A model generated the notes under the pieces. The model was given only the letters and a program-made list of their open reading frames with translations. It did not search any database and had not been told where the DNA came from. Positions 33,768 through 53,220 of a DNA stretch of 64,000 bases are shown in pieces. The position numbers and the translations under genes were made by a program. The stretch lies in NCBI GenBank assembly GCA_001801305.1, contig MGXH01000061.1, positions 4,371-68,370 on the forward strand, given 5' to 3'. Positions within the stretch are counted from its first letter, which is position 1. Each line of letters begins with the position of its first letter. Source of the stretch: Gammaproteobacteria bacterium GWE2_42_36. Lineage in GTDB: Bacteria; Pseudomonadota; Gammaproteobacteria; UBA12402.

Positions 33768-33771
33768 ACCC

Positions 33772-34515: not shown

Positions 34516-34521
34516 TAAAAC

Positions 34522-36476: not shown

Positions 36477-36525
36477 ATTTCATTAGGAATTCCCGCACTA
36501 AACGCGCGGGAATTCCTAATGAAAT
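36477..36525. repeat. Perfect 20-bp-stem palindrome (atttcattaggaattcccgc … gcgggaattcctaatgaaat, 9-nt loop) with two EcoRI sites, in an intra-locus intergenic gap
   Basis: Exact reverse-complement arms read directly from the sequence. Confidence 0.8.
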
Positions 36526-39399: not shown

Positions 39400-40712
39400 C
39401 CTAAACTAAGTGTCATAAATAAACCATAATATGCCCATTGCCATTTAACGGGGTAATAACGATTACTAATATTCATTGTGATTAAATTCGAAATACCTAT
39501 CGATAAAGCCGTTGCGATAGCTGCGCCCATAATACCCATTAATGGAATTAATATTAAATTTAACGTAATATTAACCGTAACGGATATGATATCAATGAAA
39601 AAATTAAGATAGGTTTTTCTACTCTTAAAAATGCCCATCCCACCAATTAAATAAAAACCATAAAAAATACTAGACCACGCCATAGGTCCAACAACCCTCC
39701 AACCTGAATAGTACGCTGACGGCGCTAGCAATCGAATGAGATAGGGCGATAAAAAAGTAATGAGAACAGCACCTAACGAACCTAACCCGACGTACCATAA
39801 AGCAATTTTTCTAAAAAATTCAGGGCCGTCATCGTGATGAATAGCATCCATTGCAACAGGCCACCATGCTTGACGAAAAATAGTTACTGCCAGTGCGATT
39901 AATGTAGAGATCTGCGCTCCAACCGCATATATGCCTAAGTTTTTAGCTCCCAATATTCGCAAAACAAACCATCGATCTGCACCACTTAATATCCAAATCA
40001 ACAGACCAGAAGGAATAAAAACTGCTCCAAATTGCAAAAAAGGCCTCCAAAGATCCGTTTCTAATGTATACCAATACCGATATTTTCGGGTGGCAAGCCA
40101 ACCATAAAAAGTCACAATAATTGAGGCTATCGCGAACCCAGCAAAATATCCCGTTAAATACCAATGAAATTCTATAATTAGACCAATTGAAATTACTGGT
40201 CCTAATGATGATTGTAAAAAAGATATTAAAATATAGCGCCAAGGCTGATAGATTAAACGAAAAACCTCTATCGATTGACTAATCATGGAAGAAAAAAAAG
40301 TGGTACAAATAACTAACAAAATATATTGGAAAGGCATTATCTGATTAAAAAACAAACGAACAATTAACGGCGAAAAAATGGCACATATAATAGAAACTAT
40401 CAGTCCTAAAATCATACGGAGTTGAAAAATTGAAGTGGTCACTTTTTCAATGGGGCAATTCTTCTTGTTTTTAGCCTCCATAAAAAAAAAAGATTGGGCG
40501 CCATCTAAACCAGCCGTCATAAAAATTGCCAAAATATTGCTTACTGTAGAATACATTGAAATATAGCCATAATCCTGCGGCGAAAATATGCGCGTAAATA
40601 GAGGGATTAATAAAAACGGAATAGCTTTTGCCGTTATTGCACCTAAACCATAGACCATAGAATCTGAGATGAGCTGTTTGTACTTATTCATAAAAAACCA
40701 TAACAACAACAA
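39375..40712 (-). CDS. wzx: Polysaccharide repeat-unit flippase (Wzx, MOP superfamily)
   Basis: 445 aa; ~12 TM helices; N-terminus …MVYGLGAITAKAIPFLLIPLFTRIFSPQDYG typical of Wzx. Confidence 0.7.
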   Translation of the reverse strand: MLLLWFFMNKYKQLISDSMVYGLGAITAKAIPFLLIPLFTRIFSPQDYGYISMYSTVSNILAIFMTAGLDGAQSFFFMEAKNKKNCPIEKVTTSIFQLRMILGLIVSIICAIFSPLIVRLFFNQIMPFQYILLVICTTFFSSMISQSIEVFRLIYQPWRYILISFLQSSLGPVISIGLIIEFHWYLTGYFAGFAIASIIVTFYGWLATRKYRYWYTLETDLWRPFLQFGAVFIPSGLLIWILSGADRWFVLRILGAKNLGIYAVGAQISTLIALAVTIFRQAWWPVAMDAIHHDDGPEFFRKIALWYVGLGSLGAVLITFLSPYLIRLLAPSAYYSGWRVVGPMAWSSIFYGFYLIGGMGIFKSRKTYLNFFIDIISVTVNITLNLILIPLMGIMGAAIATALSIGISNLITMNISNRYYPVKWQWAYYGLFMTLSLGCIVWLLI

Positions 40713-40749: not shown

Positions 40750-41322
40750 TTACTTTTGAGCAAAATTCTTCAATGTTTTTTTCATGCTTCTGGAATATAA
40801 ATCGGCCGGTGAGTTTGATATAACAGCGTTATCTGGCACATCCACCAATACGGATGTCCCTGCAGCTATTACGCAATTTTTACCAATTTTAACACCCGCC
40901 CCAATATAGGAATTAGCACAAATCATCGAATTATTTCCAATAATTACTGGCCTGGAAGAAAGCCCCCTCTTTTGATACATTGTCCCCTTAGGTAAAAAAC
41001 CATGATCCCCTGTAATTATAACAACATGAGGTCCTAATGCAGCTCCTTCACCTATTTCAACCCCCCCAAATGCATCAATATGAACACCCCTATTAATAAA
41101 AACATTTTTTCCTATTTGTAGATTATAGGTGCTTCTCAAATGAACGGATCTTTGCAAAATCACCCCTGGCCCACATTTTTTTGAAAACATTTTTAAATAC
41201 ATGCGCCGTATAAACAGCCCTTCAATACCAGGAATATGTTTACAAATAGACCAAAGATATTCATCAAAAAAAACACAAAGTAGCTGCTTAAACCTATAAT
41301 TTTTTAAAATATTGACAATCAT
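40750..41322 (-). CDS. Hexapeptide-repeat (left-handed beta-helix) acyl/acetyltransferase
   Basis: 190 aa; repeated [LIV]G-x4 hexads; 4-bp overlap with the ACP gene upstream. Confidence 0.65.
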   Translation of the reverse strand: MIVNILKNYRFKQLLCVFFDEYLWSICKHIPGIEGLFIRRMYLKMFSKKCGPGVILQRSVHLRSTYNLQIGKNVFINRGVHIDAFGGVEIGEGAALGPHVVIITGDHGFLPKGTMYQKRGLSSRPVIIGNNSMICANSYIGAGVKIGKNCVIAAGTSVLVDVPDNAVISNSPADLYSRSMKKTLKNFAQK

Positions 41323-41561
41323 TTTTTAGTTAAATTTGATTTTTTTAGTAAAACTTCAAGTACTGCTTTGTAGTCAAACATACGCATAATCTCATCATCA
41401 TCAAATTCTAAAGAAAACTCATCTTCTAATGCTATCATCAACTTCATATGTCTTAATGAATCCCAGTTTTCTATCGTTTCGGACGATGCCCCCTCATCTA
41501 TCTTGCTTATATCAACACTTAATACCGTAGCTATAATTTCTTTAAGTTTTTTTTCCATCAT
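41319..41561 (-). CDS. Acyl carrier protein (stand-alone ACP)
   Basis: 80 aa; acidic; phosphopantetheine attachment context IENWDSLRHMKLMIALEDEF. Confidence 0.7.
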   Translation of the reverse strand: MMEKKLKEIIATVLSVDISKIDEGASSETIENWDSLRHMKLMIALEDEFSLEFDDDEIMRMFDYKAVLEVLLKKSNLTKK

Positions 41562-43284
41562 TTACCTCAATATAATCTAAATAAAATGGCACAAAATCAT
41601 TAATGTTCCTGCAATAGGATATTTCAGAATCCGAATACGATTCTACATTAAAACCCAGCCTATCATATAATTTTTTCACCTGTTCATTTTTTTGAGTTTT
41701 AATATATTTTGATTTAACGCGATCAAATCCCTTTTTCGATAAAAAAGCCATTATGATGTTAAAAAAAGCAAATTCAATATTTCTACCAATAACACGGCAA
41801 CTCATAAGTAGTGTATCAATATTTGCGCACTTGTTATTAAGTTTAACAATACACACTCCGACGATACCATATTCGCCAAACCTATCTTTTGCTGATAATG
41901 AAATAACATCAATTTTTTCATCATCCATATAGTTGGCTATATCTATCTCTGAATACCTTTTGGTCGTAAGGTTAAATTGATTCGTTTTTTGCGCTAATTG
42001 GGAAATTCTGGAAATTTCCTCTTTTTTATTAAAAAATATTTTAATTTGTAATCCTAATGATCGTAAATAATCCTCGAGGTTATTAAATTTATTCCTATGA
42101 ACACTTCTCGCTTCTTCATCTTTATATAGTTTTGTACGACAGAGATCTTCTTCAGATTGAGATGTTCCAATATAGAATAAACTCATATTATCCCGAAATA
42201 CCCCAGGATATTCTCCTTGTACCTTTGGTACCTGCAACACTGTTACTTCAGGTAATTGTTGCCTCACTAAGTTTATCTCAAAATCAGAGTCATCAATAAA
42301 AACCAGGCTATCCATTCCTATATTAAGTTCCTTTGCAATTTCAATCAGATTCGTCACCTTATCCTGCCAATTAACTTTCTTAACACTGATATGTTCGTTT
42401 TTTATTTTCATTCCAGGATGATTAGAAAAAACCTCTTCGACATCCTGAAAATTATTTTTACTACACAAGCCTATGAGCACCCCTTGTCTGTTTAAAGCAA
42501 GCGCATAATGTTGTATTTCCTCGTAAATAACACCCTTTTTTGTATCAGCAATCATCTCAATACCATTGATACCATCCTCGCCAAGAACCCCATGCCATAA
42601 AGTATTATCACAATCAAAGATAATAGCTTTTTTACTTCTCCCAAGCATAGAAAGCAATAATGGTTTGATGTATTCAACGTAAATTTTAAAAAAATTTATC
42701 GTATATAACGCCTTTGAAGAATAAAAGTATCGGAAATCAATGGCGTTATCTATAGGACATTTTATAAAAACATTATCCAAATCAACCAGTTGAAAATTAC
42801 GCGGGGCTTTTTTCTCCAAGTACGCATTCAACTCTTGACAAATCATATCAAAATTACCACGTCTAAGATGATTATGCGTAAAAACTCTTGAATAAAATCT
42901 ATTGAAAACGACTAATGACTTGTTGGTTAATGTCAAAAATATGAAATCCAATTCAGCTTTGACTTTATCTAAAAGGCTATTTATATCACTAGCGCTCATA
43001 AGCTCAATTTTATATTGAAGCCCCTCAATAAAATTAGCAGCTTCCCAAAAAACAACAATATGATTGATATGTTTATATTTTTCACTATCTTGAAGAATAT
43101 TATCATAATCGCCCAAAACAACCTGCACATTGACATTATTAGACCGTAACGCATATTCAAGAATATCACTAATATAATGTACGGTGATATTAGAAAAAAC
43201 AGCCACGCTCACTTGTGCAGCCGATAAAGCATCCCTAAATGATTTATTCTTTTGAAGAATTTCCATATATTTAAGATTTTTCAC
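41542..43284 (-). CDS. FkbH-like protein (HAD-superfamily IIIC phosphatase domain plus C-terminal GNAT-like domain); predicted glyceryl-ACP loader
   Basis: 580 aa; FkbH/HAD signature FDCDNTLWHG; C-terminal acyltransferase-like region; overlaps the ACP gene start. Confidence 0.65.
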   Translation of the reverse strand: MKNLKYMEILQKNKSFRDALSAAQVSVAVFSNITVHYISDILEYALRSNNVNVQVVLGDYDNILQDSEKYKHINHIVVFWEAANFIEGLQYKIELMSASDINSLLDKVKAELDFIFLTLTNKSLVVFNRFYSRVFTHNHLRRGNFDMICQELNAYLEKKAPRNFQLVDLDNVFIKCPIDNAIDFRYFYSSKALYTINFFKIYVEYIKPLLLSMLGRSKKAIIFDCDNTLWHGVLGEDGINGIEMIADTKKGVIYEEIQHYALALNRQGVLIGLCSKNNFQDVEEVFSNHPGMKIKNEHISVKKVNWQDKVTNLIEIAKELNIGMDSLVFIDDSDFEINLVRQQLPEVTVLQVPKVQGEYPGVFRDNMSLFYIGTSQSEEDLCRTKLYKDEEARSVHRNKFNNLEDYLRSLGLQIKIFFNKKEEISRISQLAQKTNQFNLTTKRYSEIDIANYMDDEKIDVISLSAKDRFGEYGIVGVCIVKLNNKCANIDTLLMSCRVIGRNIEFAFFNIIMAFLSKKGFDRVKSKYIKTQKNEQVKKLYDRLGFNVESYSDSEISYCRNINDFVPFYLDYIEVNDGKKT

Positions 43285-43323
43285 TAGTTAGCTCCTTAAC
43301 AATTTTGCTATCTTGCTCACACC

Positions 43324-44769
43324 CTACACTAACTTCAAAGCATTTAACTCTCTTACTGTTTTTAACATAAATTCAAACGCATTCTCTGAAAAATGCCGTG
43401 TTAAAGACTGCGTTTGATCTGTCGCCATACGTGGCAACCTCTTTACTAAAACATAAATCCGTCGATCTATTTTTTGAATTTGTTCGCATAAGATCTCAGC
43501 GGCATATTTTGCTGATATATAATCACCAAAATCAAGCGCTTTCTCATCCAAATAAACCGTTGATGGATAAAAAATTTTAATATCATTATTATAGCGAGTC
43601 CGATACGATTTATATATCTTATAAAAACCATCAACATAATAGCTATTATATAGTTTAAAATTATCCATATTGAAAATACTACTTTTGGCTATCTTTGGTG
43701 TTGCAAAGAAAAATATATAATCTACACCAGATGTGATTTTAGCTAATCTATCCAACATATCATCTGGCCTATTGACATCATAGCTAATGTATTCGCAATC
43801 AAATCCAGCGTCTTTTATTTCATTCCTCACACGCTTAGCATCTTCAACACCCTTATGATAGGTGATTACTACTTTCCCACCACCACCAGCAAAAATTTTC
43901 GCTGTAATTTCCCCAAGACCACGACTTCCACCTAAAACCAAAGATGTTTTCCCACTAAATTCATCTGATTTCACATGCCGTATAACGTCCTTGAAAAATA
44001 GCTGTTGATATGGCATTGGGCGATAAAAAGCTTCTATCTCAGCGAACAAGCTTGAATTTTCCACATTAATTTTAACAAGCTTGAATTTATCGTGTATTTT
44101 AACCACTTTATAAGTTAGGTGTTTATCCTGACTTTTATCTTCATAGTTTTTAAATTTAAGCGCTGAAAAAATAGAACACATACCAGGACAATGCATACCA
44201 ACCAAACGCGTCATAGCAAGAATTTCAGCAAAACAAAATAAATTCAGTATTTGTGTTAGCACTGGGAATTTTTTTTTCGCGACATTTGCTTCGAAAAACA
44301 ACTCCAGAGTCCCTTCTTTATTTCGCAATTGATCAAAAGTCAAATCCATTGGATTTTTATTCTCGCAAATATTTGAACAAATTTTCACCTTCCTCACAGC
44401 TAACCTAGAACAAAATGAAAAATATAATTCCACCAATACTTGCTCAGCCTGTAACAATTGCAAATGAACATTATTTCCTTCCGAACTAATTAATCTTATA
44501 TTCACTACTTTATTGAGGTAAATTGGAGACAGGAATTGAACATCTAAACTTACAATATCAATTAGGTTGTCCCTATTGCTTTTTTGTGCGCCGAAAAAAA
44601 CCTCTAACATCCATACAACTGCATGAATGCCATGAACAACCACATTACCGTATAGCTCTCTTCGTGAACTTATTGGATTAAGATGCATTAAGTTATAGTC
44701 GCCCGATAATCGCGCAAAATATTTCTGATCGGATAAATAAAATTTTCTGGACACTAAAACGTTGTTCAT
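43324..44769 (-). CDS. Fusion protein: N-terminal MaoC-like (R)-hydratase/dehydratase (hot-dog) plus C-terminal short-chain dehydrogenase/reductase
   Basis: 481 aa; MaoC signature GDYNLMHLNP; SDR motifs GGSRGLG and Y-ISA-K. Confidence 0.65.
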   Translation of the reverse strand: MNNVLVSRKFYLSDQKYFARLSGDYNLMHLNPISSRRELYGNVVVHGIHAVVWMLEVFFGAQKSNRDNLIDIVSLDVQFLSPIYLNKVVNIRLISSEGNNVHLQLLQAEQVLVELYFSFCSRLAVRKVKICSNICENKNPMDLTFDQLRNKEGTLELFFEANVAKKKFPVLTQILNLFCFAEILAMTRLVGMHCPGMCSIFSALKFKNYEDKSQDKHLTYKVVKIHDKFKLVKINVENSSLFAEIEAFYRPMPYQQLFFKDVIRHVKSDEFSGKTSLVLGGSRGLGEITAKIFAGGGGKVVITYHKGVEDAKRVRNEIKDAGFDCEYISYDVNRPDDMLDRLAKITSGVDYIFFFATPKIAKSSIFNMDNFKLYNSYYVDGFYKIYKSYRTRYNNDIKIFYPSTVYLDEKALDFGDYISAKYAAEILCEQIQKIDRRIYVLVKRLPRMATDQTQSLTRHFSENAFEFMLKTVRELNALKLV

Positions 44770-44772
44770 ATT

Positions 44773-45693
44773 TCAGCATTTCTCATTCTGAAATTCTGGG
44801 GGATTTTTACTTAATACATAAGCACAATTCATTGGCAACTGTTGTTCTTCCGTTTCTTTAATACTCAATCCTCGATAAGGAATTATCAGCCGCTCATTTA
44901 CATTCAACCCTGAACTTTCAATAAGCTCCTCTAAATCCTTTATTGATTTAAAAAGATAAATATGATCGATCATAGCGGAATTAATACAAGTAGTAATAAA
45001 TATATGGGCGCCATAATGAGATAGCTGGAATAGTTTTTTTAAATATGATAAAGGTTCTTCAACATGTTCCAAAACCTCGCCCATAATAATAAAATCATAT
45101 TCTCGATTTAATTTTAAAAAATCTTGTTGATAAATGTTATAATTTGAAGTCTGCTTAATATAATTATATTTTATAATAATATTTGTGATATTCACACTTG
45201 CGGGGCTGATATCAATTCCTTCAAAAAAATCAAAAGGGCCTAATTGCATTGCTTTTAACATAAAAAGCCCATGGCCCGGACCAATCTCTAAATACCTCTC
45301 CCCTTTTTCATTGATAATGGTTTTTGCGAAAAACCTCATTATCTCTCTATGTTGAGGCCAAAAAAACATCGAAATAGCTAAACCATACATATATTTTGAC
45401 ATGTATTTATCGTTCATATACACAGAAGATGCCACATCCGCATAGTTACAGTATCTATACCGCTTGTTTTTTTCAAAAAAAATCTGCTCTTTAATCGCGT
45501 CATTTACAAGCAAGTTATACGCATCCGCCAAATATTGAATACTCAATCCCATATTTAAGCAGCATTGAATATATACCTCTAAGTTATTCACTTCATCTTG
45601 AAAAAGCTCTTCCCTTTCAGCGTATAGAAATTTCTTATGCGCTTTATTTTTTGACGTAATTTCATCAATTAGGATATTGATACATGAATTCAT
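44773..45693 (-). CDS. Class I SAM-dependent methyltransferase
   Basis: 306 aa; motif I YLEIGPGHGLF. Confidence 0.65.
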   Translation of the reverse strand: MNSCINILIDEITSKNKAHKKFLYAEREELFQDEVNNLEVYIQCCLNMGLSIQYLADAYNLLVNDAIKEQIFFEKNKRYRYCNYADVASSVYMNDKYMSKYMYGLAISMFFWPQHREIMRFFAKTIINEKGERYLEIGPGHGLFMLKAMQLGPFDFFEGIDISPASVNITNIIIKYNYIKQTSNYNIYQQDFLKLNREYDFIIMGEVLEHVEEPLSYLKKLFQLSHYGAHIFITTCINSAMIDHIYLFKSIKDLEELIESSGLNVNERLIIPYRGLSIKETEEQQLPMNCAYVLSKNPPEFQNEKC

Positions 45694-45705
45694 AGGTACA
45701 CCCTC

Positions 45706-46869
45706 TTAATAAAGAAAATTTTTATAATTTGGAAAATTAACTACATGCTCACTATAATATCTCGAGATGGGGTAGTCCTGAAATTTATATTTTTCATATG
45801 CTTGCGTATAGGGGATGACATAGTCAACAATAACGCCCAAATTAATATTTTTTTGTCGAAATTTCTCAATCCACTTTCCGCGATCTGTCACTAAACCAAC
45901 GCAATGACTATACGTTGCTCCATTATCCATCAGTAAAAATGATATTCCATTGTCCTGTTTAAAACGCCTTTGCCATTGGTTAGAGTTTTCACCTTTAAGC
46001 TGTATGATTTTATCGTATTTATTTAGCTGCACCAATCCTATTCTTGCTTCTATTTCTGTGGGCAAGGTATTCCAGTCCTTGGGAAAATCAATACTCGCAT
46101 CGTCATAATATTTCACAAATCGATCCAACAGACCCTTGCCTTCCAGCCAATTCACGAATCCGTAAATATATGCGTTAAATGCCGGATAGATAGCAATCAA
46201 ATAAAAAAATCGCTTTATACTTTTTAGCCAGGTGGATTTTCTAAAAGTCGTTTTTCGATATTCCATAAGAGCATGGTAAGTTTCTTGGCTATTAGTCGTC
46301 ACCATCCCGCCAAAAATTGAATTAATGATTTTACTGATATTTAATCCATAAATGGCTGCATCACCAAACTTCGTCACCAACTCGCCATTCCACCGACAAC
46401 CAAATGAATGAGCACAATCTTGTACCATATAAATTTTATGATTATATTTCTCTTCCGCCTCTTTTATTATTTTTTGAACTGCAACTACGTCCATCGGATA
46501 TCCAAACAAATGCGTCACAATAATTGCTCTAGTTTTCACAGTAATAGCGTTTCTAATACCTTCTAATGACATATTAAAGCTATCTTTTTCACAATCAATA
46601 AACACAGGCGTATTGCCGGATAGAACAATAGCATGGGCCACAACCACGCAAGTGTAGGCAGGACATATAATTTCATCGTTCTTTAAATTCCATATCTTAA
46701 ACAATGAATACAATCCTGCGCGACCATATGAAAACATCACGCCATAATCACATTCGAATTTTTTAGCAAATGCCTTCTCAAACCTTAGGATATTACCTGT
46801 TGAAAAAGCCATTGCTGCCAAAATTTCTTTGAAATTATAAACCGGCTTTAATCGTGATATCAATTTCAT
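45706..46869 (-). CDS. DegT/DnrJ/EryC1-family PLP-dependent aminotransferase
   Basis: 387 aa; DCAHSFG and …NISKIINSIFGGMVTT lysine block. Confidence 0.7.
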   Translation of the reverse strand: MKLISRLKPVYNFKEILAAMAFSTGNILRFEKAFAKKFECDYGVMFSYGRAGLYSLFKIWNLKNDEIICPAYTCVVVAHAIVLSGNTPVFIDCEKDSFNMSLEGIRNAITVKTRAIIVTHLFGYPMDVVAVQKIIKEAEEKYNHKIYMVQDCAHSFGCRWNGELVTKFGDAAIYGLNISKIINSIFGGMVTTNSQETYHALMEYRKTTFRKSTWLKSIKRFFYLIAIYPAFNAYIYGFVNWLEGKGLLDRFVKYYDDASIDFPKDWNTLPTEIEARIGLVQLNKYDKIIQLKGENSNQWQRRFKQDNGISFLLMDNGATYSHCVGLVTDRGKWIEKFRQKNINLGVIVDYVIPYTQAYEKYKFQDYPISRYYSEHVVNFPNYKNFLY

Positions 46870-48419
46870 TTGATTTCCTCAGAATAAAATTCTACCAACC
46901 TTGATTTTATAGGTGCATCTTTTGCCTGAGCTAACCAATAGCCACTGGAAGCCATATGAATCGATTTTACCTGGCCATAATGATCGATACCAACACAACC
47001 GGGTGGCTTATCCCACAGTTCGCTGACTACAATCTTATTATCAGTCAGATAAAATGATCGTTTAACATAACCATTTATTTCCTTCTTCCCTGTCATTAAG
47101 TATTTTACAATGCAATATTTAAACCATTCGCCTAACTTTATTGATCTAAAAATAGTAAGCGATAGAAATCGTAATATAATAAATTTGAAAGGTGAAAGAT
47201 AATCTTCATTAGTCAAATAAAAACGGGATCTAATATCTTTCTGATCAAAATTGACTGTATTGTCATATTGCTGCGTTGAAAAGCGCTTACCATTTTTTAA
47301 GGAGCCAAAAATCCCACCATCTTCAATATCAAGCATTCCTGTTATCTTATCAAACACTTTAATCACACCACCTTTTTTATAATTAATAATAAGGTAGTAT
47401 TGATCAGTTGATTTGATAAACAATCCTGCATCAGGAAACGATTTCTCAAAGCATTCTTGGTATATTGGTTTAGTCTCCAATAATAAATCTGATTGATATA
47501 AAGCAGCAACAGCATAGCTATTAATAAGTGGAATAAAATTTCCTATATCAACCGATGATGGCATAATGTGTTGAGGTGTTTTTTTTGGTTCTAAAAACTT
47601 AGCTAACAACGCAGAGTCATTGTTTTCTTTTGCAAAACCTACAATGCCGCCTGGATAATATACTTCTGTATTTCTAGAGCCATATAATCCTCCAATCGTA
47701 CCATCCGGATGAATAAAATATTTTAAAAAACCAGCGCTCTTATTCAAACTTTCTAAAAGTTTTTTATCCTTCGTAATCTCATAAATACAAAATAAATAAT
47801 AGACGCAAAGCGTTTGGTATCCTGGATCAGCACCTTCATATTCTCGATACCATCCTTCATCCGACTGATGCTGATATATAACCTCTAATAATTGTTGATC
47901 CCGTGGATTATTATCTTGCATCAAATTATTCCATAACGTGATTGCTGCCGCGCCTGTTGCCAAATGATTTGATATCAAGGCATGTGTTTCATTATAGATT
48001 GAAATAAAATGTATAAGCGGCTTCACAATCGACAGATATGTTTTCCTTGTATATCTATCAAGCTTCTCTCCTAAATGTTTAACAGCTGAAAGCACATCAA
48101 AAGCCACTAAAGCGGTCACACAAAACGAATGTTCATTCGGATAGGCTTCAATCATTGATCCATTTTTATGTCTTATTTTCTCTATTGCGCGAATCGCTGA
48201 ATCGATCACATTTAAAATAAATTTTTCGTTATCAATAATTTTCAACTTAACAGAAATCGCCAGCGCGTGAACACCACCTTGCATAGTTCCATTCACAAAA
48301 TCTTTCGTTTTCCAAGCCCAATATTCACGATCGCCATAACCATATGCTCGGGAAAAAGTGTCCAAATTATATAAATTTAATAATTTCGAAAGATTGCTTT
48401 TTACTGTTTGTACGTACAT
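46866..48419 (-). CDS. hypothetical 517-aa protein; possibly an alpha/alpha-toroid glycan-modifying enzyme; function unknown
   Basis: Long ORF with operon-style 4-bp overlaps on both sides; no motif I can name confidently. Confidence 0.3.
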   Translation of the reverse strand: MYVQTVKSNLSKLLNLYNLDTFSRAYGYGDREYWAWKTKDFVNGTMQGGVHALAISVKLKIIDNEKFILNVIDSAIRAIEKIRHKNGSMIEAYPNEHSFCVTALVAFDVLSAVKHLGEKLDRYTRKTYLSIVKPLIHFISIYNETHALISNHLATGAAAITLWNNLMQDNNPRDQQLLEVIYQHQSDEGWYREYEGADPGYQTLCVYYLFCIYEITKDKKLLESLNKSAGFLKYFIHPDGTIGGLYGSRNTEVYYPGGIVGFAKENNDSALLAKFLEPKKTPQHIMPSSVDIGNFIPLINSYAVAALYQSDLLLETKPIYQECFEKSFPDAGLFIKSTDQYYLIINYKKGGVIKVFDKITGMLDIEDGGIFGSLKNGKRFSTQQYDNTVNFDQKDIRSRFYLTNEDYLSPFKFIILRFLSLTIFRSIKLGEWFKYCIVKYLMTGKKEINGYVKRSFYLTDNKIVVSELWDKPPGCVGIDHYGQVKSIHMASSGYWLAQAKDAPIKSRLVEFYSEEIK

Positions 48420-48423
48420 AAAA

Positions 48424-49257
48424 TTATTTTATCTTCCGAAGATTTGCATAGATCATAAAGCCAAAATGCCTATCTAAAAATCGATGAAGCCCTCTTGGAA
48501 TTTTAAAAGGCAAACTTCTCGCCGGGAAAAAGTGCACAAATGTTTCTTCTATTTGAAAATAGGGTTTTAGCATAGATAAAAATTCTTTTTTTGAATATGC
48601 CTTACCAATTGGGTTTTCTTTCCCATCATAGATTCTCACAATCTCGTTAATCTCTTTAACTGAGTATATATTTTCCCTGCCTCGCCCTTTCAATCCACCT
48701 CCTGCCAAACTAATTAATTTTGCAATAGGTCTAAAAACAGGCCATAAACGCAAAAAAATATTCTTATAATAAACACTAATACTCGCTGTTCCATTTTTTT
48801 GTAACACTCTATGAATTTCTTGAATTGTATTATGCGTATTTGGGGTATGGTGAATAACTCCTTGACAATTAACATGGGAAAACATTTCTGAGTCAAAAGT
48901 CATCGATTCTGCATTTTGTTTTGAAAAATCAGCCTTAACACTATAAATTTCACATCTCTTTTTTGATAAACATAAAGCATGATTTGTTAAATCAGCGCCA
49001 ACTAATTCGCCATTAACTCGTGTCGCTAACTCAATTAACCAGAAACCAATGCCACACCCCAAATCCAATACCTTATTACAGCTCAATTCTTTAGGAATGA
49101 TTCTCTCATCAAATCTTCCCGCAAAACAATCATCGATATAGGTGCTTCTATGTTCTTCAAAAAAATCTTTTGACCCAGGTTTGTTTGAGCTTTCCCCTGT
49201 CCATAATGGGTTCATCTCCCAAAAAGCTTCCACATCTTGTATTGTTTTGTTACTCAT
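48424..49257 (-). CDS. Class I SAM-dependent methyltransferase
   Basis: 277 aa; motif I VLDLGCGIGFW. Confidence 0.65.
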   Translation of the reverse strand: MSNKTIQDVEAFWEMNPLWTGESSNKPGSKDFFEEHRSTYIDDCFAGRFDERIIPKELSCNKVLDLGCGIGFWLIELATRVNGELVGADLTNHALCLSKKRCEIYSVKADFSKQNAESMTFDSEMFSHVNCQGVIHHTPNTHNTIQEIHRVLQKNGTASISVYYKNIFLRLWPVFRPIAKLISLAGGGLKGRGRENIYSVKEINEIVRIYDGKENPIGKAYSKKEFLSMLKPYFQIEETFVHFFPARSLPFKIPRGLHRFLDRHFGFMIYANLRKIK

Positions 49258-50015
49258 TTTACATTCCTAAAGATAAACGACCAGCTTAAATTAAAATCCA
49301 TTGGCAAAAAACAAAATGGTTTCTTAATGGACTTGATTGATTCGAAATTTTTATTTAATATCTGCTTGAGCTTGTTCACAAAATTTGGATGTTCCCAGCA
49401 TATTATTTTATCATAGTCGATTGGCATATTTTTTTTTACATAACGTCGACTTGTTAAAAATCGACCAACTCCCCATGCCATTCCCCCCTCAGCAGGCACC
49501 GCACCAACAATCAGTCCGCTAGGCTTTAATACTCGTTTGAGCTCTTGAACATACTGGTCTAATTCATAGATATGCTCTAATTGATGAAAAGTAATCACCA
49601 TGTCAACCGAATCAGTCTCCAATGGCAAATGAGTACCGGTGACTTGTATCATTTTAACTTGATGTATTCCGTATTTTTTCAGCTGCTCCGCTGATTGAGT
49701 TAACATTTCTTTTTTAATGTCCACCAAGAAATAACTTTCGGGTCTGGTATGATTATAGCTAAGATGCTCAATAATTCCTGGGCCCACTTCCAGCACTCTT
49801 TTCCCAGTCAGATCAACGTGACGCATAATCCTGAAACCATAATGATTTACCATAGAACCAATAGTTCCTTTTTGATTATCATGATAAAACTGCATATAAC
49901 AATTCGATGACCACTGTTTGAAATCAGCATCATTCGGATCAGCTTTCAGTCCCCAACGCCTTCGATCCCCGAATAAAGGCTTAAAGAGAAAATAGGGTAA
50001 CCATTTATATATCAT
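49254..50015 (-). CDS. SAM-dependent methyltransferase (type 11-like)
   Basis: 253 aa; RVLEVGPGIIEH motif I; 4-bp overlap with neighbouring genes. Confidence 0.6.
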   Translation of the reverse strand: MIYKWLPYFLFKPLFGDRRRWGLKADPNDADFKQWSSNCYMQFYHDNQKGTIGSMVNHYGFRIMRHVDLTGKRVLEVGPGIIEHLSYNHTRPESYFLVDIKKEMLTQSAEQLKKYGIHQVKMIQVTGTHLPLETDSVDMVITFHQLEHIYELDQYVQELKRVLKPSGLIVGAVPAEGGMAWGVGRFLTSRRYVKKNMPIDYDKIICWEHPNFVNKLKQILNKNFESIKSIKKPFCFLPMDFNLSWSFIFRNVK

Positions 50016-51327
50016 GTAATTTCCTCAATATATGCTCATAAACCTTGTGCCACTGATAATCATCAGAAAAAACTCGCTGATGCCATGAGATTGAAACATA
50101 ACTCGCTTTGAAGACACTCAATTTAGATAATAACTCATACGCTTGTTTTTCCGCCTCATTTTTATCGCACGCATAATCAAAAATATGAGAATCCATCATG
50201 ATTTGTGGAGTTTCAAGATAAACAAAAGGTCGCTGGTTATCATGATCAAATGGCCGATATTGGCTTGCACATCCAGATCGAAACCCCATCTGATCATTCC
50301 ACCCTAGCGTTGAATCATCCTGAAATAACGATTCATGCAAATACGGCGTTATTTTCTCATCATAATTTAACCAATGCTGGCGTGTTTTTTTGATTTTATG
50401 ATTTAATACGCTCTCTAAAATTTGTTTTTCCTTTTTCAACAGGCCTTCTTCTACTGCGCTAAAATAACTGCCATGCAATCCTATTTCAAAACCATCATTC
50501 AAAAGCTCCTTTAATTTATTTTTCAACCGTTCATTTGTACTAACTTCATAAGAAGGATCAATTAACCATGCTTTAAATCTACGCTCTCCTGATTTCGCAT
50601 AGATATAAAAAACAGAACGGATATTATGTTCTTTCTCAAGCACCGCCCAATAGTCAAAACACCAATAAGATGGATTGGTTACAAGAAATCGAACTGTTTT
50701 TTTTATATTCCTCCAACAAACTTTTGGCTGTACGATTGTTTTTAATGATTGATAGCCATGAAAAACAGCATGCTTAATACGTAACTGAAATGTTTTATTG
50801 ATATAATCAACATCGTGAGAACATTGAACAAATGGCTTTCTCTTTTCATGAAATTTTAATTCCGGGAAATACTGCTTAATTAACGCCGCTAATTCATTAA
50901 ACAAAACATTAACAATAGGAATTAGAAATGTGCTTTTATCAAGACGAGGATGTCTTGAACAATAACTTGTGATTTTTATCCCCCTCAAATCAGCCTGATA
51001 TTCTTCTAATCGCGATAAAAATACAAATGCGTTCCAAAACAAATCATAGTTTAAAAAAAAATTTTCCTGGGTCATTGTTTCCGGAAAAACAAACAAGTTA
51101 TCAAACAACCAAACAGTGTGAACGCCAGGATTTGGAGAGTTTGAGCAGTAAATAGAAGCATGAGAGTGACTCAAAATATTGCGCGTGTAATATAAAACAT
51201 TTTCGCTATTAGAATCAGTAACATTTTGAATCCGAATATCAAATGTTGCCAAATTAATACATATAAATTCATCGAGAATATATCGAAGCCAGGCTTGATT
51301 CTGTATGTCAGTTTTAATTGTTAACAT
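50005..51327 (-). CDS. hypothetical 440-aa protein; weak CE4/polysaccharide-deacetylase-like motifs (CSHDVDY, IGLHGSY)
   Basis: Long ORF in the operon; only weak motifs. Confidence 0.3.
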   Translation of the reverse strand: MLTIKTDIQNQAWLRYILDEFICINLATFDIRIQNVTDSNSENVLYYTRNILSHSHASIYCSNSPNPGVHTVWLFDNLFVFPETMTQENFFLNYDLFWNAFVFLSRLEEYQADLRGIKITSYCSRHPRLDKSTFLIPIVNVLFNELAALIKQYFPELKFHEKRKPFVQCSHDVDYINKTFQLRIKHAVFHGYQSLKTIVQPKVCWRNIKKTVRFLVTNPSYWCFDYWAVLEKEHNIRSVFYIYAKSGERRFKAWLIDPSYEVSTNERLKNKLKELLNDGFEIGLHGSYFSAVEEGLLKKEKQILESVLNHKIKKTRQHWLNYDEKITPYLHESLFQDDSTLGWNDQMGFRSGCASQYRPFDHDNQRPFVYLETPQIMMDSHIFDYACDKNEAEKQAYELLSKLSVFKASYVSISWHQRVFSDDYQWHKVYEHILRKLHDI

Positions 51328-53213
51328 TGATCGATAAACGTCCTAAACCAAACTTCAATATTTAATGCGCCCCAAATATCACGACCAAATAAATCATTAC
51401 TTCTAATTTGCTTTTCAAGCCCCGCTACATTAATCATCCCGCGATTTACTGCCGTTTGACCAGTTAGGATATCAAGCACATATTCTTTGAGCGGTCCTGC
51501 GAGCCATTCATTGAATGGTGTTGGAAATCCCATTTTATCTTTTCGATTGAGTATTTCTTGAGGCAAAATATTCTTGCTCGCCTTTAATAACATCGCTTTT
51601 GGTTTACCACCATAAAATTTCAATAATGGCGGCATTGCTGCTGCCAATTCAACAATACGTTTATCCAAAAGTGGGACTCGAGATTCCAACGACATAGCCA
51701 TACTCATACGATCTTCAACATGAAGTAATGTTGGCAGTAACGTCATGCGATCAAAATTAGTCATTTTGTTTAAATAAGATGGCGTTGAAGGTTGATCAAA
51801 TATCTGTAGATATTTATTGAACAAACTCTCTTGATACCCATGGCTTAAAAAATCCTGCCTATAAATATGCTGCAAATTCGGAGACCGATCAATTAAGCGA
51901 AAATAACGACAACCTATATCATCAAATAAACCTTCAGCAAATTGATATTTCAACAATGGCACGTATTGTTTCAGCAACGGTAAATTTTCAGCAATTGTTG
52001 CCCATGTTGCTACATATTGACTTTTGTTCTGTGTTTCAAATATCGCGCCTTTCAAACATTGCTCTAAATAGGCAATAGCATACCGTGCATACCCACCAAA
52101 AATTTCATCTCCACCCTGGCCACCTAATACAACCTTGACATATTTACTGGCTAATTTCGAGACCATATATTGAGGGAAAATTCCAGGGCCCCCGGCAGGC
52201 TCATCCATGTGATAAATCAATGTTTCAAAATGGTTGATAAAATCCAATGCATTCGGATAAATCACATGGTTTTTACAGTGAGAATAGTCGCTTACAATTT
52301 TAGCATATCGTGTTTCATCATATTTTTGATGTTCCTTAAAACCGCCCGTAAAAGTATGTAATTGTAATTCATGATTTTTTGAAGCCAATGCCGTCACAAT
52401 ACTGGAATCCAGTCCACCACTCAAATAAGTACCTACCGGAACATCTGATCGCATTTGATGCTGAATTGTATTTTCTAATAAAGCTAATAATTCATCTGAA
52501 AATTGTTCTACTGATTTCTTTTCATCAACATGATATTTCACTTCCCAATAACATTTTTTTTCAACAATTCTCCCCTTTTTTATTATCATATAAGTCGCGG
52601 GTTCTAACTTGAAAATATTTTTAAATAAAGTGTGTTTCTTTAATATCATCTGAAAAGTCAAATATTCATGTAATGAATGCTCATCAACTCCCGTATAAAC
52701 ATTTGGAAAGGCTAAAATTGACTTGATTTCAGAAGCAAAAATAAACTGCCCTTCGCTAGTTGTATAATAAAAAGGTTTAATGCCAAATTGATCTCTCGCA
52801 ATAAATAAGCTATCATTTTTTTTATCAAAAATCACAAATGCAAACATACCATTTAAATGGTCTAAGCATTTTTCCCCATACTCAATAAATAAATTTAACA
52901 AAACCTCAGTATCTGAGCTTGTTGTAAATTGATGATCTTTCTGAATCAAATCCCGACGTAATTCTAAATAATTATAAATCTCGCCATTAAATGCGATAAC
53001 ATACCGTCCATCATTCGAAATCATAGGTTGAACGCCTTGCTCGAGATCAATAATAGACAACCGCACATGCCCTAACGATAAAGATTGATGAAAAAATTCA
53101 CCCTGGCCATCTGGGCCACGATGAGCAATTTTTTTAAGCATGGTCTTTAAAAGACGTTCGCGGCTATTTTGATTTTTAATTTGATCTGAATAAAACCCAG
53201 ATATCCCACACAT
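51321..53213 (-). CDS. Asparagine synthetase (glutamine-hydrolysing) homolog; second WbpS-like amidotransferase candidate
   Basis: 630 aa; MCGISG nucleophile; SGGLDSS PP-loop. Confidence 0.8.
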   Translation of the reverse strand: MCGISGFYSDQIKNQNSRERLLKTMLKKIAHRGPDGQGEFFHQSLSLGHVRLSIIDLEQGVQPMISNDGRYVIAFNGEIYNYLELRRDLIQKDHQFTTSSDTEVLLNLFIEYGEKCLDHLNGMFAFVIFDKKNDSLFIARDQFGIKPFYYTTSEGQFIFASEIKSILAFPNVYTGVDEHSLHEYLTFQMILKKHTLFKNIFKLEPATYMIIKKGRIVEKKCYWEVKYHVDEKKSVEQFSDELLALLENTIQHQMRSDVPVGTYLSGGLDSSIVTALASKNHELQLHTFTGGFKEHQKYDETRYAKIVSDYSHCKNHVIYPNALDFINHFETLIYHMDEPAGGPGIFPQYMVSKLASKYVKVVLGGQGGDEIFGGYARYAIAYLEQCLKGAIFETQNKSQYVATWATIAENLPLLKQYVPLLKYQFAEGLFDDIGCRYFRLIDRSPNLQHIYRQDFLSHGYQESLFNKYLQIFDQPSTPSYLNKMTNFDRMTLLPTLLHVEDRMSMAMSLESRVPLLDKRIVELAAAMPPLLKFYGGKPKAMLLKASKNILPQEILNRKDKMGFPTPFNEWLAGPLKEYVLDILTGQTAVNRGMINVAGLEKQIRSNDLFGRDIWGALNIEVWFRTFIDQC

Positions 53214-53220
53214 CTCTATG

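Follow-up and report, generated by a model that had tools for sequence, protein, structure and literature searches.

A cassette of ten genes that Gammaproteobacteria bacterium GWE2_42_36, an uncultured organism, carries in its capsule locus on balance probably encodes an acyl carrier protein (ACP)-linked line that assembles a small glycerate-derived acyl substituent and transfers it to an amino sugar of the capsule, by means of two coupled modules. The ten open reading frames occupy positions 40750-51327 of the 64,000-nucleotide stretch that was analysed (the window), all on the minus strand, and their family assignments agree with those of a preliminary description of this DNA. They are packed closely; the overlaps of 4-20 bp given there for the junctions are found between the overlapping pairs, while the other genes are separated by gaps of 3-39 bp. 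The capsule setting proposed earlier is borne out by the surrounding genes for Wza, Wzb, Wzc, Wzx and a PglC-like phosphoglycosyltransferase, and by TviB/TviC-like and Wbp-like genes in the same locus, which is taken here as one for a capsule or exopolysaccharide.

FkbH580 (41542..43284, minus strand), a protein of 580 residues with a GTG start, matches the FkbH model TIGR01686 at 274.6 bits (cut-off 146.65) and the HAD-IIIC model TIGR01681 at 55.3 bits (cut-off 35.75). It consists of an N-terminal domain (residues 1-215), a HAD-IIIC phosphatase domain (216-370) and a GNAT-fold transferase domain (about 410-580). The HAD-IIIC signature pointed out before, FDCDNTLW, lies at residues 223-230, and all four HAD motifs are kept; PDB entry 3slr matches at 1.3e-34. 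The C-terminal domain, earlier called GNAT-like, was predicted to have a GNAT fold (pLDDT 83.5), for which Foldseek returned RimI, SpeG and similar proteins with a probability of 1.0. The HAD motifs, including D224 and D226, as well as NQFNLTT.R and S-C496-R, are invariant across 20 FkbH homologues. D224, D226, T228, S275-K276-N277, K309, D332, NQFNLTT.R and S495-C496-R497 are also common to FkbH580 and the FkbH of a Streptomyces tetronate operon, 30% identical over residues 27-547. This homologue is plasmid-borne, and its operon, with FabH-like, FkbH, ACP, E2-like acyltransferase and alpha/beta hydrolase genes, corresponds in layout to the operon for glycerate utilisation in tetronate synthesis presented in PMC7489565. 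Further HAD and GNAT matches, of 33-39% identity, sit within proteins of 2.5-5.7 kaa, presumably megasynthases. FkbH580 is thus a predicted glyceryl-ACP synthase. The adjoining ACP80 (41319..41561, minus strand), a stand-alone carrier protein as suggested earlier, has a PP-binding match of 21.7 bits (cut-off 20.8), with NCBIfam ACP models matching below their cut-offs; its modifiable serine in the DSL site is Ser35, located within WDSLRHM. No phosphopantetheinyl transferase gene was found in the cassette.

The tailoring gene upstream, MaoC-SDR481 (43324..44769, minus strand), encodes the fusion of a hot-dog (R)-hydratase/dehydratase with a short-chain reductase that had been recognised before, both domains being matched (MaoC_dehydratas, 34 bits; adh_short, 31.7 bits). 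Its GDYNLMH motif retains the Asp/His spacing of hydratase 2, and GGSRGLG and YISAK are present in the reductase part. The protein belongs to a distinct subfamily of about 1000 proteins of approximately 480 aa, which adjoins FkbH/ACP genes also in Bradyrhizobium and in three other loci (L019, L069 and L080), and differs strongly from the fusion that commonly accompanies FkbH (25-45 bits); a BLAST comparison with the Aliarcobacter gene at the equivalent position gave no match. It is a predicted tailoring enzyme for the ACP-bound acyl group, as MT306 (44773..45693, minus strand), a class-I SAM methyltransferase of the Methyltransf_23 type (65.3 bits), is its predicted O-methyltransferase. At the other end of the cassette LbH190 (40750..41322, minus strand), a left-handed beta-helix hexapeptide acyltransferase of the WcaF/WbbJ-like kind (Hexapep, 50.7 bits), overlaps the stop codon of ACP80 by 4 bp and, as noted earlier, adjoins wzx; the flippase gene (39375..40712, minus strand; MOP flippase and Polysacc_synt matches) lies directly downstream of the cassette. 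LbH190, 51% identical to the Aliarcobacter gene at the same position, is the candidate enzyme for acyl transfer from the ACP to the sugar.

Read together, the genes at 40750-45693 would form an acyl-donor line. FkbH580 would take 1,3-bisphosphoglycerate, its HAD-IIIC domain stripping the 3-phosphate, and the glyceryl unit would be held on Cys496 of the GNAT-fold domain before being handed to the Ser35-bound phosphopantetheine of ACP80. MaoC-SDR481 may then rework C2/C3 of the bound unit; in the favoured course the beta-hydroxy thioester would be dehydrated to pyruvoyl-ACP, which would then be reduced to lactyl-ACP. O-methylation by MT306 would give a 2-methoxypropanoyl-type or methylated glyceroyl group, and LbH190, translationally coupled to the ACP, would move it onto the sugar, the acceptor being the amine made by DegT387. 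Gene content, motifs, folds and synteny are what was observed; the substrate, the acyl group, the acceptor position and the transferase of this scheme are inferred from them.

The genes at 45706-55085 would constitute the second module, devoted to acceptor synthesis. DegT387 (45706..46869, minus strand) is the PLP-dependent sugar aminotransferase of the preliminary description, with a DegT_DnrJ_EryC1 match of 155.9 bits, DCAHS and the S-K lysine, and is the predicted source of the acyl-accepting amine. The two large proteins of 517 and 440 aa, previously described as of unknown function, have recognisable relatives. U517 (46866..48419, minus strand), a cytoplasmic protein without a match in Pfam, is predicted to fold into an (alpha/alpha)6 barrel with a beta-sandwich (pTM 0.87), an architecture also seen in dermatan-sulfate epimerase and in uronate lyases; probably it works on sugars beside a carboxyl or carbonyl group, as an epimerase, isomerase or lyase-type enzyme. 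U440 (50005..51327, minus strand) is a DUF7033 (33.9 bits) and CE4-type, VimE-like protein that aligns over its full length with the VimE model NF053580, at 64.4 bits and below the cut-off of 440; SHDxD, GxHxS, RQH, DST and MDS are invariant, its gene always adjoins asnB, and it is a putative N-deacetylase of a 2,3-diacetamido uronic acid. Between them lie MT277 (48424..49257, minus strand; Methyltransf_25, _31 and _11 at 60-66 bits), whose position is taken in L082-L086 by a methyltransferase or a B12-radical-SAM enzyme, and MT253 (49254..50015, minus strand; Methyltransf_11, 60.8 bits), to which a 200-aa Aliarcobacter methyltransferase at the equivalent position is 59% identical.

Three further minus-strand genes complete the block. 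AsnB630 (51321..53213), a WbpS-like glutamine-dependent amidotransferase (TIGR01536, 517 bits; TIGR03108, 476 bits, below cut-off), is predicted to convert a uronic acid to the uronamide, a role for which WbpS provides the precedent (PMC7468200). GT2_262 (53221..54009; Glycos_transf_2, 75 bits), with weak best matches to ArnC, PgfS, PpgS and AglJ and an Aliarcobacter counterpart of 74% identity, possibly synthesises a polyprenyl-phosphate sugar. The low-GC cassette begins with the gene for a WecB/WbpI-type non-hydrolysing UDP-sugar 2-epimerase (54006..55085; TIGR00236, 328 bits against 210). Beyond it lie the resident Wbp-type genes, also on the minus strand: a WbpE-like aminotransferase of higher GC (55095..56201; DegT-family NCBIfam matches, PseC model 229 bits), 42% identical to the product of an L083 gene placed after a WbpB/WbpD fusion; a WbpD-like N-acetyltransferase (56179..56745; NeuD/PglB/VioB family, 85 bits), which shares 57% identity with the hexapeptide part of the GFO_IDH_MocA-Hexapep fusion of L083; and a WbpB-like Gfo/Idh/MocA oxidoreductase (56768..57820; UDP-GlcNAc 3-dehydrogenase model, 93.7 bits, below cut-off), a possible source of a 3-keto sugar. 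No dehydrogenase making the keto substrate of DegT387 was found in the cassette, unless this step falls to the resident WbpB. Farther away, a TviB/WbpA-like UDP-GlcNAc 6-dehydrogenase (27642..28928, minus strand; NF011729, 516 bits against a cut-off of 592; TIGR03026, 383 against 190) is the predicted supplier of uronic acid. In the proposed scheme this enzyme and the Wbp enzymes would supply a UDP-2,3-diacetamido uronic acid, to which the cassette would add the actions of the 2-epimerase, AsnB (uronamide), the VimE-like deacetylase, U517, two methyltransferases and DegT387.

The second module is conserved as a block in the order epimerase-GT2-AsnB-deacetylase-517aa-DegT. The order AsnB-U440-(methyltransferase)-U517-DegT is kept in six loci from different phyla, and in L082 and L083 DegT387 is 57-65%, AsnB630 50-59% and the 2-epimerase 57-62% identical. 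The DegT387-type gene always follows the 517-aa gene, and the variable N-acyl donor comes next: the FkbH set in the window and in two Aliarcobacter loci, a formyltransferase (Nitrospirae) or a GNAT protein in others, and in L085 a FemAB-like acyltransferase one gene further on. Since these replace the FkbH set behind a conserved block, the acyl donor looks swappable, to judge from gene order. MT277, MT253, U517, U440 and DegT387 thus make up a separate conserved sugar-tailoring block that exists without FkbH too, DegT387 co-varying with U517 and not with FkbH.

The ACP/FkbH/MaoC segment had been singled out as the most AT-rich part of the window. Its sampled 60-nt lines (42001, 43561 and 44101) do have a GC content of 20.0, 23.3 and 25.0%, against the 22-25% given before, and the lowest-GC 1-kb window is 41001-42000 (31.1%); low GC (33-35%), however, spans approximately 36.5-55.1 kb, well beyond this segment. 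At 55085/55095 the value changes abruptly from 34.4% to 41.3%, and an Aliarcobacter cassette has the same gene order, with 50-74% identity to the window genes. On these two grounds the low-GC block is regarded as horizontally acquired.

Modules of the FkbH type are present in thousands of genomes. The next gene after FkbH encodes an ACP in 77 of 81 loci, and upstream there is usually either a fusion of MaoC with SDR or a protein of the glyoxalase fold (VOC), together with an MT306-type methyltransferase. The fusion occurs in 54 of 80 loci (a version of about 396 aa directly upstream of FkbH in 46) and the VOC protein in 14, the two being found together only once; the hot-dog motif GD.N..H is kept in 48 of 71. 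This near-mutual exclusion could equally mean that both proteins only invert C2. All three methyltransferases of the window are class-I SAM enzymes, as had been stated, but only MT306 co-varies with FkbH, with homologues in 43 of 80 loci, mostly one or two genes upstream. Acyltransferase genes accompany FkbH in 52 of the 80 loci, DegT genes in 39, and LbH genes no more than 7 kb away in 21; the N-acyltransferase types encountered are GNAT, AAC(3)-like and FemAB-like. FabH, AMP-ligase and a second ACP are added in many loci; clearly, then, the loci do not all end in the same acyl group.

Among known systems, the polyketide FkbH/ACP systems, namely methoxymalonyl-ACP synthesis (FkbG-K of FK520) and the tetronate operons (e.g. 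Mad7/Mad8/Mad16-18), share with the window the three-part FkbH with its HAD motifs and S-C-R, a stand-alone adjoining ACP and a SAM O-methyltransferase. The window differs in lacking FkbK-/FkbI-type dehydrogenases, a FabH-like tetronate synthase and a PKS, in its tailoring by a MaoC-SDR fusion (a VOC protein in other loci), and in the presumed acceptor, a sugar instead of a polyketide chain. The closest glycan precedent comes from Campylobacter jejuni NCTC 11168, whose flagellin glycan contains 5-N-(2,3-di-O-methylglyceroyl)-pseudaminic acid, with the genes located around cj1295-cj1302; strains that have naturally lost cj1302, which encodes an FkbH domain, or cj1301 do not have this sugar, and a deacetylate-then-reacylate logic was proposed for Cj1295 (Hitchen et al.). 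Both loci thus place an FkbH-domain gene among glycan genes, and the C. jejuni glycan has a methylated glycerate amide, although its acceptor is a CMP-nonulosonic acid destined for flagellin and the one presumed for the window a capsule uronic acid. With cj1301 annotated as an epimerase, the C. jejuni genes look like a set of the methyltransferase-'epimerase'-FkbH type, whereas the window has a MaoC-SDR, so the acyl groups probably differ. The neighbours of cj1302 are presumably the ACP genes cj1299 and cj1304, the methyltransferase gene cj1300 and the FabH2 gene cj1303; no in vitro characterisation of the enzymes of this set was found in the searchable literature.

On the acceptor side, Porphyromonas gingivalis and Tannerella forsythia use WbpA/B/E/D, VimE, VimA and WbpS; the Wbp enzymes lead to a 2,3-diacetamido uronic acid, and according to a published proposal the CE4-type VimE frees one of the amines for later re-acylation (PMC7468200). 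The window has homologues for each of these steps, from the diacetamido uronic acid through deacetylation to AsnB-type amidation, with U440 far below the VimE cut-off. The donor differs, an amino acid added by the FemAB-like VimA as against an ACP-bound acyl group, and U517, DegT387 and two methyltransferases of the window have no Vim counterpart. The Arn (L-Ara4N) pathway comprises the ArnB aminotransferase, the ArnA formyltransferase, the GT2 ArnC and the CE4 deformylase ArnD. It has in common with the window a DegT protein followed by an N-acyl donor (formyl in Arn), a CE4-type deacylase and a small GT2, the latter having ArnC as its best, though weak, match; the LPG_synthase_TM and GT-C (PMT_2, YfhO) proteins encoded in related loci are a further point of agreement. 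The window has no ArnA-type decarboxylating dehydrogenase, and a carrier-lipid route is hinted at by the weak GT2 matches only, unlike in Arn. Also unlike in Arn, the acyl group predicted for the window is elaborate, and so is probably kept in the product. The Bordetella O-antigen ends in a 2,3,4-triamino-galacturonamide with formyl and 2-methoxypropionyl groups, which we take to be a Wbp-type diamino uronic acid, amidated, with an extra amino group and a formyl or methoxy-C3 acyl substituent. If so, the gene set of the window would suit exactly such chemistry, which is offered as a lead; no Bordetella locus was among the homologue matches.

Counting against acylation of the DegT387 amine by this line are the absence from the cassette of a phosphopantetheinyl transferase and, the resident WbpB apart, of a keto-forming dehydrogenase, the divergence of MaoC-SDR481, the co-variation of DegT387 with U517, the C2-inversion reading of the MaoC-SDR and VOC proteins, and the similarity of LbH190 to O-acetyltransferases. 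Several other explanations were weighed against it. It is possible, though not probable, that the same donor line acylates an amine freed by U440 from the N-acetyl of the Wbp product, the DegT387 amine being left free or N-methylated by MT277/MT253. The full-length VimE alignment with its CE4-type Asp/His motifs, the Wbp/Vim scheme of deacetylation and re-acylation, and the equivalent scheme put forward by Hitchen et al. for the dimethylglyceroyl group of C. jejuni agree with this, as do an Acaryochloris locus (L073) grouping Wbp, MT306-type, FkbH, ACP and U440-like genes, and DUF4910/DUF2172 proteins, of the aminopeptidase-like type reported for Cj1295, beside FkbH in six loci. The variable donor nevertheless follows DegT in all six core loci (directly in five) while U440 adjoins AsnB, most FkbH loci have a DegT gene and no U440 homologue, and the cassette holds a single candidate transferase for two possible amines. 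An ester on a sugar hydroxyl, of the glycerate-derived group or just of acetate, with LbH190 as the O-acyltransferase, is rather unlikely. N-acyltransferase models match LbH190 weakly, and its best families are the O-acetyltransferases WcaF, WbbJ and HpsU and those for maltose (MAT) and galactosides; being closer to these, it may form an ester or add plain acetate, although all such matches fall far short of the cut-off (82 against 192 bits). An FkbH-ACP pair on S. meliloti pSymB also sits with an MBOAT protein in a Dlt-like layout typical of extracytoplasmic O-acylation, and an MBOAT gene lies inside the A. butzleri cassette. FkbH loci are, however, rich in aminotransferases and N-acyltransferase types, and the glycerate-type glycan groups known from the literature consulted, Pse5(di-O-Me-glyceroyl) and Pse7Gra, are amides.

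Two explanations depart from the glycerate-to-sugar scheme itself. FkbH580 might load a different acyl phosphate, or be a fusion of a sugar-phosphate phosphatase and an N-acetyltransferase, the ACP serving another enzyme. Its acyl-phosphate substrate cannot be fixed from sequence, which counts against the preferred explanation too, the family, with its 13,557 clusters at 50% identity, is very large and varied, and the added FabH, AMP-ligase and second ACP elsewhere go with differing end products; yet the tight FkbH-ACP pairing, the invariant Cys shared with the tetronate-operon protein, the model score above cut-off and the correlation of cj1302 with a glycerate-derived glycan group make this improbable. 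It is very improbable indeed that ACP, FkbH and MaoC-SDR form a small polyketide, tetronate or lipid pathway merely located in the capsule locus. Methoxymalonyl-ACP and tetronate biosynthesis are the settings in which FkbH-ACP pairs are most familiar, and a plasmid-borne Streptomyces example was recovered here, but the cassette has no ketosynthase, FabH, acyl-CoA dehydrogenase, 3-hydroxyacyl-CoA dehydrogenase or thioesterase, it is translationally coupled to sugar-tailoring genes and Wzx, and Aliarcobacter glycan loci repeat its gene order.

The earlier proposal of an ACP-dependent C3 acyl group for an amino sugar therefore stands as regards the FkbH motifs, the FkbH-ACP pairing, the donor position behind DegT and the C. 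jejuni parallel; it is modified as regards the genes counted in the donor line, several of which belong to the separate block, and the linkage, which may be an ester. The accompanying statement that the products of FkbH-like genes in glycan loci are essentially uncharacterised is correct as far as the searchable literature goes, in which no experiment on any such FkbH was found, although the cj1302 link precedes it, and the idea of an FkbH-derived glycan acyl group is consequently not wholly new.

All ten ORFs proposed for the cassette at 40750-51327 were found on the minus strand where the preliminary description had placed them, and at the junctions neighbouring ORFs either overlap by 4-20 bp or are separated by 3-39 bp. 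Pfam and NCBIfam searches recognise, on this strand, a hexapeptide acyltransferase (LbH190, 40750-41322), an ACP of 80 aa with a W-D-S35-L motif (ACP80, 41319-41561), an FkbH-domain protein (FkbH580, 41542-43284) and a MaoC hot-dog/SDR fusion (MaoC-SDR481, 43324-44769), together with three class-I methyltransferases and a DegT aminotransferase. FkbH580 scores 274.6 bits against TIGR01686 (cut-off 146.65), in an alignment that spans positions 3-322 of the 323 in the profile, and 55.3 bits against the HAD-IIIC model (cut-off 35.75). Among 20 aligned homologues the HAD motifs D224-C-D226-N-T228, S275, K309, and D331-D332 are fully or almost fully conserved, and they are common to the Streptomyces and Sinorhizobium meliloti homologues; S275-K276-N277 and two C-terminal motifs, QKTNQFNLTTKRY and S495-C496-R497, are invariant in all 20. 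In OzmB the acyl-enzyme site is reportedly a cysteine. The AlphaFold model of FkbH580 (pLDDT 83.5) comprises three domains, of which the first two match PDB entry 3slr and the last has a GNAT fold, as found by Foldseek on the predicted structure. The ACP80 gene overlaps that of FkbH580 by 20 bp, and its product carries a modifiable serine (WDS35L). Loss of the HAD aspartate motif or of the ACP serine had been named as an argument against an FkbH/ACP function; both residues are present.

The FkbH family is large, with more than 7,850 proteins at E<1e-10, most of them about 580 aa long, with roughly 50% identity even across phyla. An exhaustive search gave 13,557 clusters at 50% identity and included HAD plus GNAT matches within proteins of 2.5-5.7 kaa, presumably megasynthases. 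A full-text literature search returned no paper characterising an FkbH-like protein of a glycan locus or giving its biochemical role.

Two known systems were compared with the locus. A Streptomyces FkbH gene (L087), recovered by tblastn of plasmids, is surrounded by genes for a FabH-like protein, an ACP, an E2-like acyltransferase, and an alpha/beta hydrolase, the gene set of the tetronate 'glycerate utilisation' operon described in PMC7489565. Its product is 30% identical to FkbH580 over residues 27-547 and retains all of the FkbH580 motifs, Cys496 included, but the FabH-like tetronate synthase, the E2-like acyltransferase, and the alpha/beta-hydrolase dehydratase that define the tetronate operon are all missing from the window in Pfam and NCBIfam searches. 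The methoxymalonyl-ACP pathway (FkbG-K type; PMC7489565) differs as well, as it places an FkbK-type 3-hydroxyacyl-CoA dehydrogenase and an FkbI-type acyl-CoA dehydrogenase beside FkbH and the ACP, and neither type has a Pfam or NCBIfam match among the ten cassette proteins. The locus can be placed in a widespread, putative variant of the FkbH/ACP glycerate system, which in this case is joined to another conserved module, for sugar tailoring. Yet another arrangement is present on a pSymB-type plasmid of S. meliloti (CP050512.1, 815-5849), where capsule genes lie close to a group encoding an MBOAT protein, an ACP, and an FkbH-like protein of 628 aa; the layout is Dlt-like and suggests that a polysaccharide is O-acylated outside the cytoplasm with a group derived from FkbH.

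The distribution of the acyl-donor genes was followed in 80 species genomes, fetched by two exact peptide motifs that matched at least 592 species genomes. An ACP lies directly after FkbH in 77 of 81 loci. Clustering of the neighbours gave 54 loci of the 80 with a MaoC-SDR fusion, 14 with a VOC protein of the glyoxalase fold, and a single one with both; the gene directly upstream of FkbH encodes a MaoC-SDR in 46 loci and a VOC protein in 13. The two occupy one slot upstream of FkbH, and the pattern suggests that they are alternative C2 processing routes for the ACP-bound acyl group. The Asp/His hydratase motif of the hot-dog domain is retained in 48 of 71 MaoC-SDR fusions. A methyltransferase of the MT306 type is encoded in 43 of the 80 loci, an acyltransferase (LbH, GNAT, or AAC(3)-like) in 52, and DegT in 39. 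Four operon types recur: FabH-MT-MaoC/SDR-FkbH-ACP-AMP ligase-GNAT, (LbH)-MT-VOC-FkbH-ACP, GT2-MaoC/SDR-FkbH-ACP-GNAT, and MT-MaoC/SDR-FkbH-ACP-LbH, the last being that of the window. Full-length close FkbH homologues (34-48% identity) are also encoded in archaeal MAGs of Woesearchaeota (L007) and Methanomicrobiales (L028) and in the marine cyanobacteria Prochlorococcus (L027) and Acaryochloris (L073); an ACP gene adjoins FkbH in L007, L027, and L073, and there is none on the 1.6-kb L028 contig. The FkbH module reaches beyond the glycan loci of classical pathogens.

The second module is best seen downstream of the aminotransferase. In five further loci (L082-L086), two from Aliarcobacter, one from Nitrospirae, and two on metagenomic contigs, the genes are again arranged as AsnB-DUF7033 protein-(methyltransferase or radical SAM)-517aa-DegT, usually with a small GT2 and an epimerase of the WecB type upstream; the window counterpart extends over 45706-55085. 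The block recurs in Gammaproteobacteria, Campylobacterota, Nitrospirae, and metagenomic contigs. The proteins of the window block are 44-74% identical to their counterparts in L082 and L083. What follows DegT varies. In the window and both Aliarcobacter loci it is the MT-MaoC/SDR-FkbH-ACP-LbH set, in the Nitrospirae locus a formyltransferase, in L086 a GNAT, and in L085 one 496-aa gene and then a FemAB-like acetyltransferase. Of the comparative evidence, this variation speaks most strongly for the FkbH line as N-acyl donor to the amine made by DegT387, the cassette aminotransferase; behind one such enzyme, the FkbH set appears to be exchangeable for donors of the formyl, acetyl, and FemAB types. 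The preliminary description had the outline of the cassette largely right and some gene assignments wrong: because the donor behind the conserved order varies, two of the methyltransferases (MT277 and MT253), the 517-aa protein U517, the 440-aa protein U440, and DegT387 are to be read as sugar-tailoring genes instead. The epimerase-GT2-AsnB-DUF7033-U517-DegT block could be linked to no described pathway, and it is this sugar module with its swappable donor, rather than the FkbH genes, that is most novel here.

Within the otherwise syntenic window and Aliarcobacter cassettes MaoC-SDR is the single poorly conserved member. MaoC-SDR481 represents a separate subfamily of about 480 aa, linked to FkbH elsewhere too, e.g., in Bradyrhizobium erythrophlei, and has no BLAST match at 1e-5 to the 396-aa Aliarcobacter MaoC-SDR encoded at the same position (L082, 9633-10823). 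Judged by sequence, the two are of different subfamilies, and their lack of a match at one position implies that the gene was swapped by non-orthologous replacement within a syntenic cassette.

U440 had been described as a protein of unknown function, which can no longer be maintained: it has a DUF7033 match, and its alignment with the VimE model NF053580 is end to end (residues 85-438 against 79-430 of 431), at 64.4 bits and so far below the equivalog cut-off of 440. It is evidently homologous to VimE but a different enzyme. H171-D172-x-D174, H285, and H318 are invariant in seven homologues, and Asp/His motifs of this kind are typical of CE4; there is no match to Pfam Polysacc_deac_1. In the Wbp/Vim pathway VimE is the proposed 2-N-deacetylase, and the AsnB homologue WbpS makes a uronamide (PMC7468200). 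U517 has about 1,500 relatives at 55-60% identity in many phyla, no family match, and no match in a profile-based sequence search of the PDB; its predicted structure is an (alpha/alpha)6 barrel with a beta-sandwich. The fold of uronate C5-epimerases and polysaccharide lyases (dermatan-sulfate epimerase, PL12/15/17/33) consists of an (alpha/alpha) barrel and a C-terminal beta-sandwich, with Asn-His and Tyr as catalytic residues, and its enzymes abstract a proton beside the carbonyl or carboxyl group of a sugar. That U517 is a uronate dehydratase supplying the keto group for DegT387 was considered and rejected on chemical grounds, since the 4,5-ene is an enol ether, hydration of which would break the glycosidic bond. 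The sole candidate in the window for the source of the keto-sugar is the resident WbpB-like oxidoreductase. Amination of pyruvoyl-ACP to alanyl-ACP by DegT387 was likewise rejected, because homologues of DegT387 occur in loci without FkbH.

The cassette belongs to a group-1-like Wza/Wzb/Wzc-Wzx capsule or EPS locus, in which Wza (the polysaccharide export protein), Wzb (119 bits), Wzc (498 bits; its eps_fam domain exceeds the cut-off), the Wzx flippase, and the initiating phosphoglycosyltransferase (Bac_transf, 203 bits) were all found; no Wzy polymerase was identified with confidence within the locus. The initiating transferase is PglC-like and is accompanied by a PglD/PglE-like acetyltransferase-aminotransferase pair beside a 514-aa protein of the NAD epimerase/dehydratase family. 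The locus also encodes a TviB-like UDP-GlcNAc 6-dehydrogenase, a TviC-like 4-epimerase, WbpB-, WbpE-, and WbpD-like proteins, and two AsnB-type amidotransferases. The five Wbp steps leading to UDP-2,3-diacetamido-2,3-dideoxy uronic acid (6-dehydrogenase, 3-oxidoreductase, 3-aminotransferase, 3-N-acetyltransferase, and 2-epimerase) all have homologues, as family-level matches: TviB-like (516 bits), Gfo/Idh/MocA, DegT, NeuD-family LbH, and WecB (328 bits). With these Tvi- and Wbp-like genes and two AsnB proteins in the locus, 2,3-diacetamido uronic acids and uronamides are very probable constituents of the polymer.

The AT-rich lines sampled earlier do have 20-25% GC; the low-GC tract itself, extending from about 36.5 kb to 55085, is far larger than the ACP/FkbH/MaoC segment. 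At 55085/55095 the GC content steps from 34.4% (the epimerase gene) to 41.3% (the WbpE-like gene), exactly at the start of the block common to Aliarcobacter, which suggests that the 36.5-55.1 kb stretch was acquired horizontally. A tRNA scan and a repeat search for integration scars around the low-GC block gave no tRNAs, and repeats at chance level only. A promoter and terminator scan gave fewer promoter-like sites than in shuffled sequence, with matches at coding coordinates, and is at most compatible with one operon. The sole sizeable gap of the block, 209 bp between two glycosyltransferase genes (36320/36530), contains an inverted repeat (36477-36525) of two perfectly matched 20-nt arms around a 9-nt loop, possibly a hairpin that terminates transcription or has a regulatory role. 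Two membrane proteins without a family are encoded in the window, one at 30681-31862 and the other, of 518 aa, at 37843-39399. The latter is polytopic, with a soluble C-terminal region; it is similar to a 519-aa protein encoded downstream of the sugar block in L085 (158 bits), shows no similarity to the 653-aa proteins of the Aliarcobacter loci, and could be a GT-C transferase or the Wzy polymerase. At 31866-35178 lies another set of modification genes, for an AsnB of 633 aa, a deacetylase of 247 aa (DUF2334/Polysacc_deac_1), and a 218-aa methyltransferase, reminiscent of the AsnB-deacetylase-methyltransferase trio in the main cassette.

On the basis of family knowledge, a route for the acyl group can be proposed. 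FkbH580 would convert 1,3-bisphosphoglycerate through a glyceryl-S-enzyme to glyceryl-S-ACP80; MaoC-SDR481 would then dehydrate the beta-hydroxy thioester to pyruvoyl-ACP and reduce it to lactyl-ACP or, alternatively, would reset C2, a role that may also fall to the VOC protein, with which MaoC-SDR is mutually exclusive. The product would be O-methylated by MT306, and LbH190 would transfer the acyl group to an acceptor, presumably a Wbp-derived diamino uronic acid, which the cassette would also epimerise, amidate, partly deacetylate, methylate, and aminate. Related groups are present on known glycans. Campylobacter jejuni 11168 bears 5-N-(2,3-di-O-methylglyceroyl)-pseudaminic acid, and in two C. 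jejuni strains without this flagellar glycan cj1302 (FkbH-domain) is a pseudogene in one and cj1301 is missing in the other; Cj1295, also required, is proposed to remove the N-acetyl group first. For this group the literature found offers gene-glycan correlations only. Tannerella forsythia bears N-glyceroyl pseudaminic acid, the basis of which its authors call 'a major challenge'. The 2-methoxypropionyl and triamino-uronamide chemistry of Bordetella is a lead only.

The GT2 of the block (53221-54009) has as its best matches, all weak, the polyprenyl-phosphate sugar synthases ArnC, PgfS, PpgS, and AglJ, and proteins of the LPG_synthase_TM and GT-C types (PMT_2, YfhO) occur in related loci (L082, 13347-16261; L084, 18477-21392; L086, 13326-14354 and 18984-20426; L085, 1-657). 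This hints at an addition of the special sugar outside the cytoplasm, with a lipid carrier as the possible donor. A joint reading, tentative and on the whole rather unlikely in its entirety, is that the block is an undescribed, new amino-uronamide pathway with a plug-in acyl donor, a new family in U517, and lipid-carrier delivery. Its last nitrogen would take a formyl, acetyl, or aminoacyl group or a glycerate-derived group from FkbH/ACP; U517 would found a new family of cytoplasmic C5-epimerases of nucleotide-sugar or lipid-linked uronates, or of keto-generating isomerases; and the GT2, taken with the LPG_synthase_TM and GT-C proteins of related loci, could mean that a polyprenyl-phosphate carrier delivers the sugar for addition outside the cytoplasm.

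Aliarcobacter butzleri and A. cryaerophilus, both culturable, share the same cassette (assemblies GCA_035065355.1 and GCA_006503605.1), and the idea is therefore testable although the organism of the window is uncultured. Small N-acyl groups on surface sugars determine antigenicity, phage and lectin recognition, and serotype, and the FkbH-ACP pair is a very common module of glycan loci in bacteria and archaea that sorts into a few stereotyped operon types. If the proposed mechanism is true, it would link glycolysis, through 1,3-bisphosphoglycerate, directly to the decoration of surface glycans and would provide a portable enzyme set for glyco-engineering.
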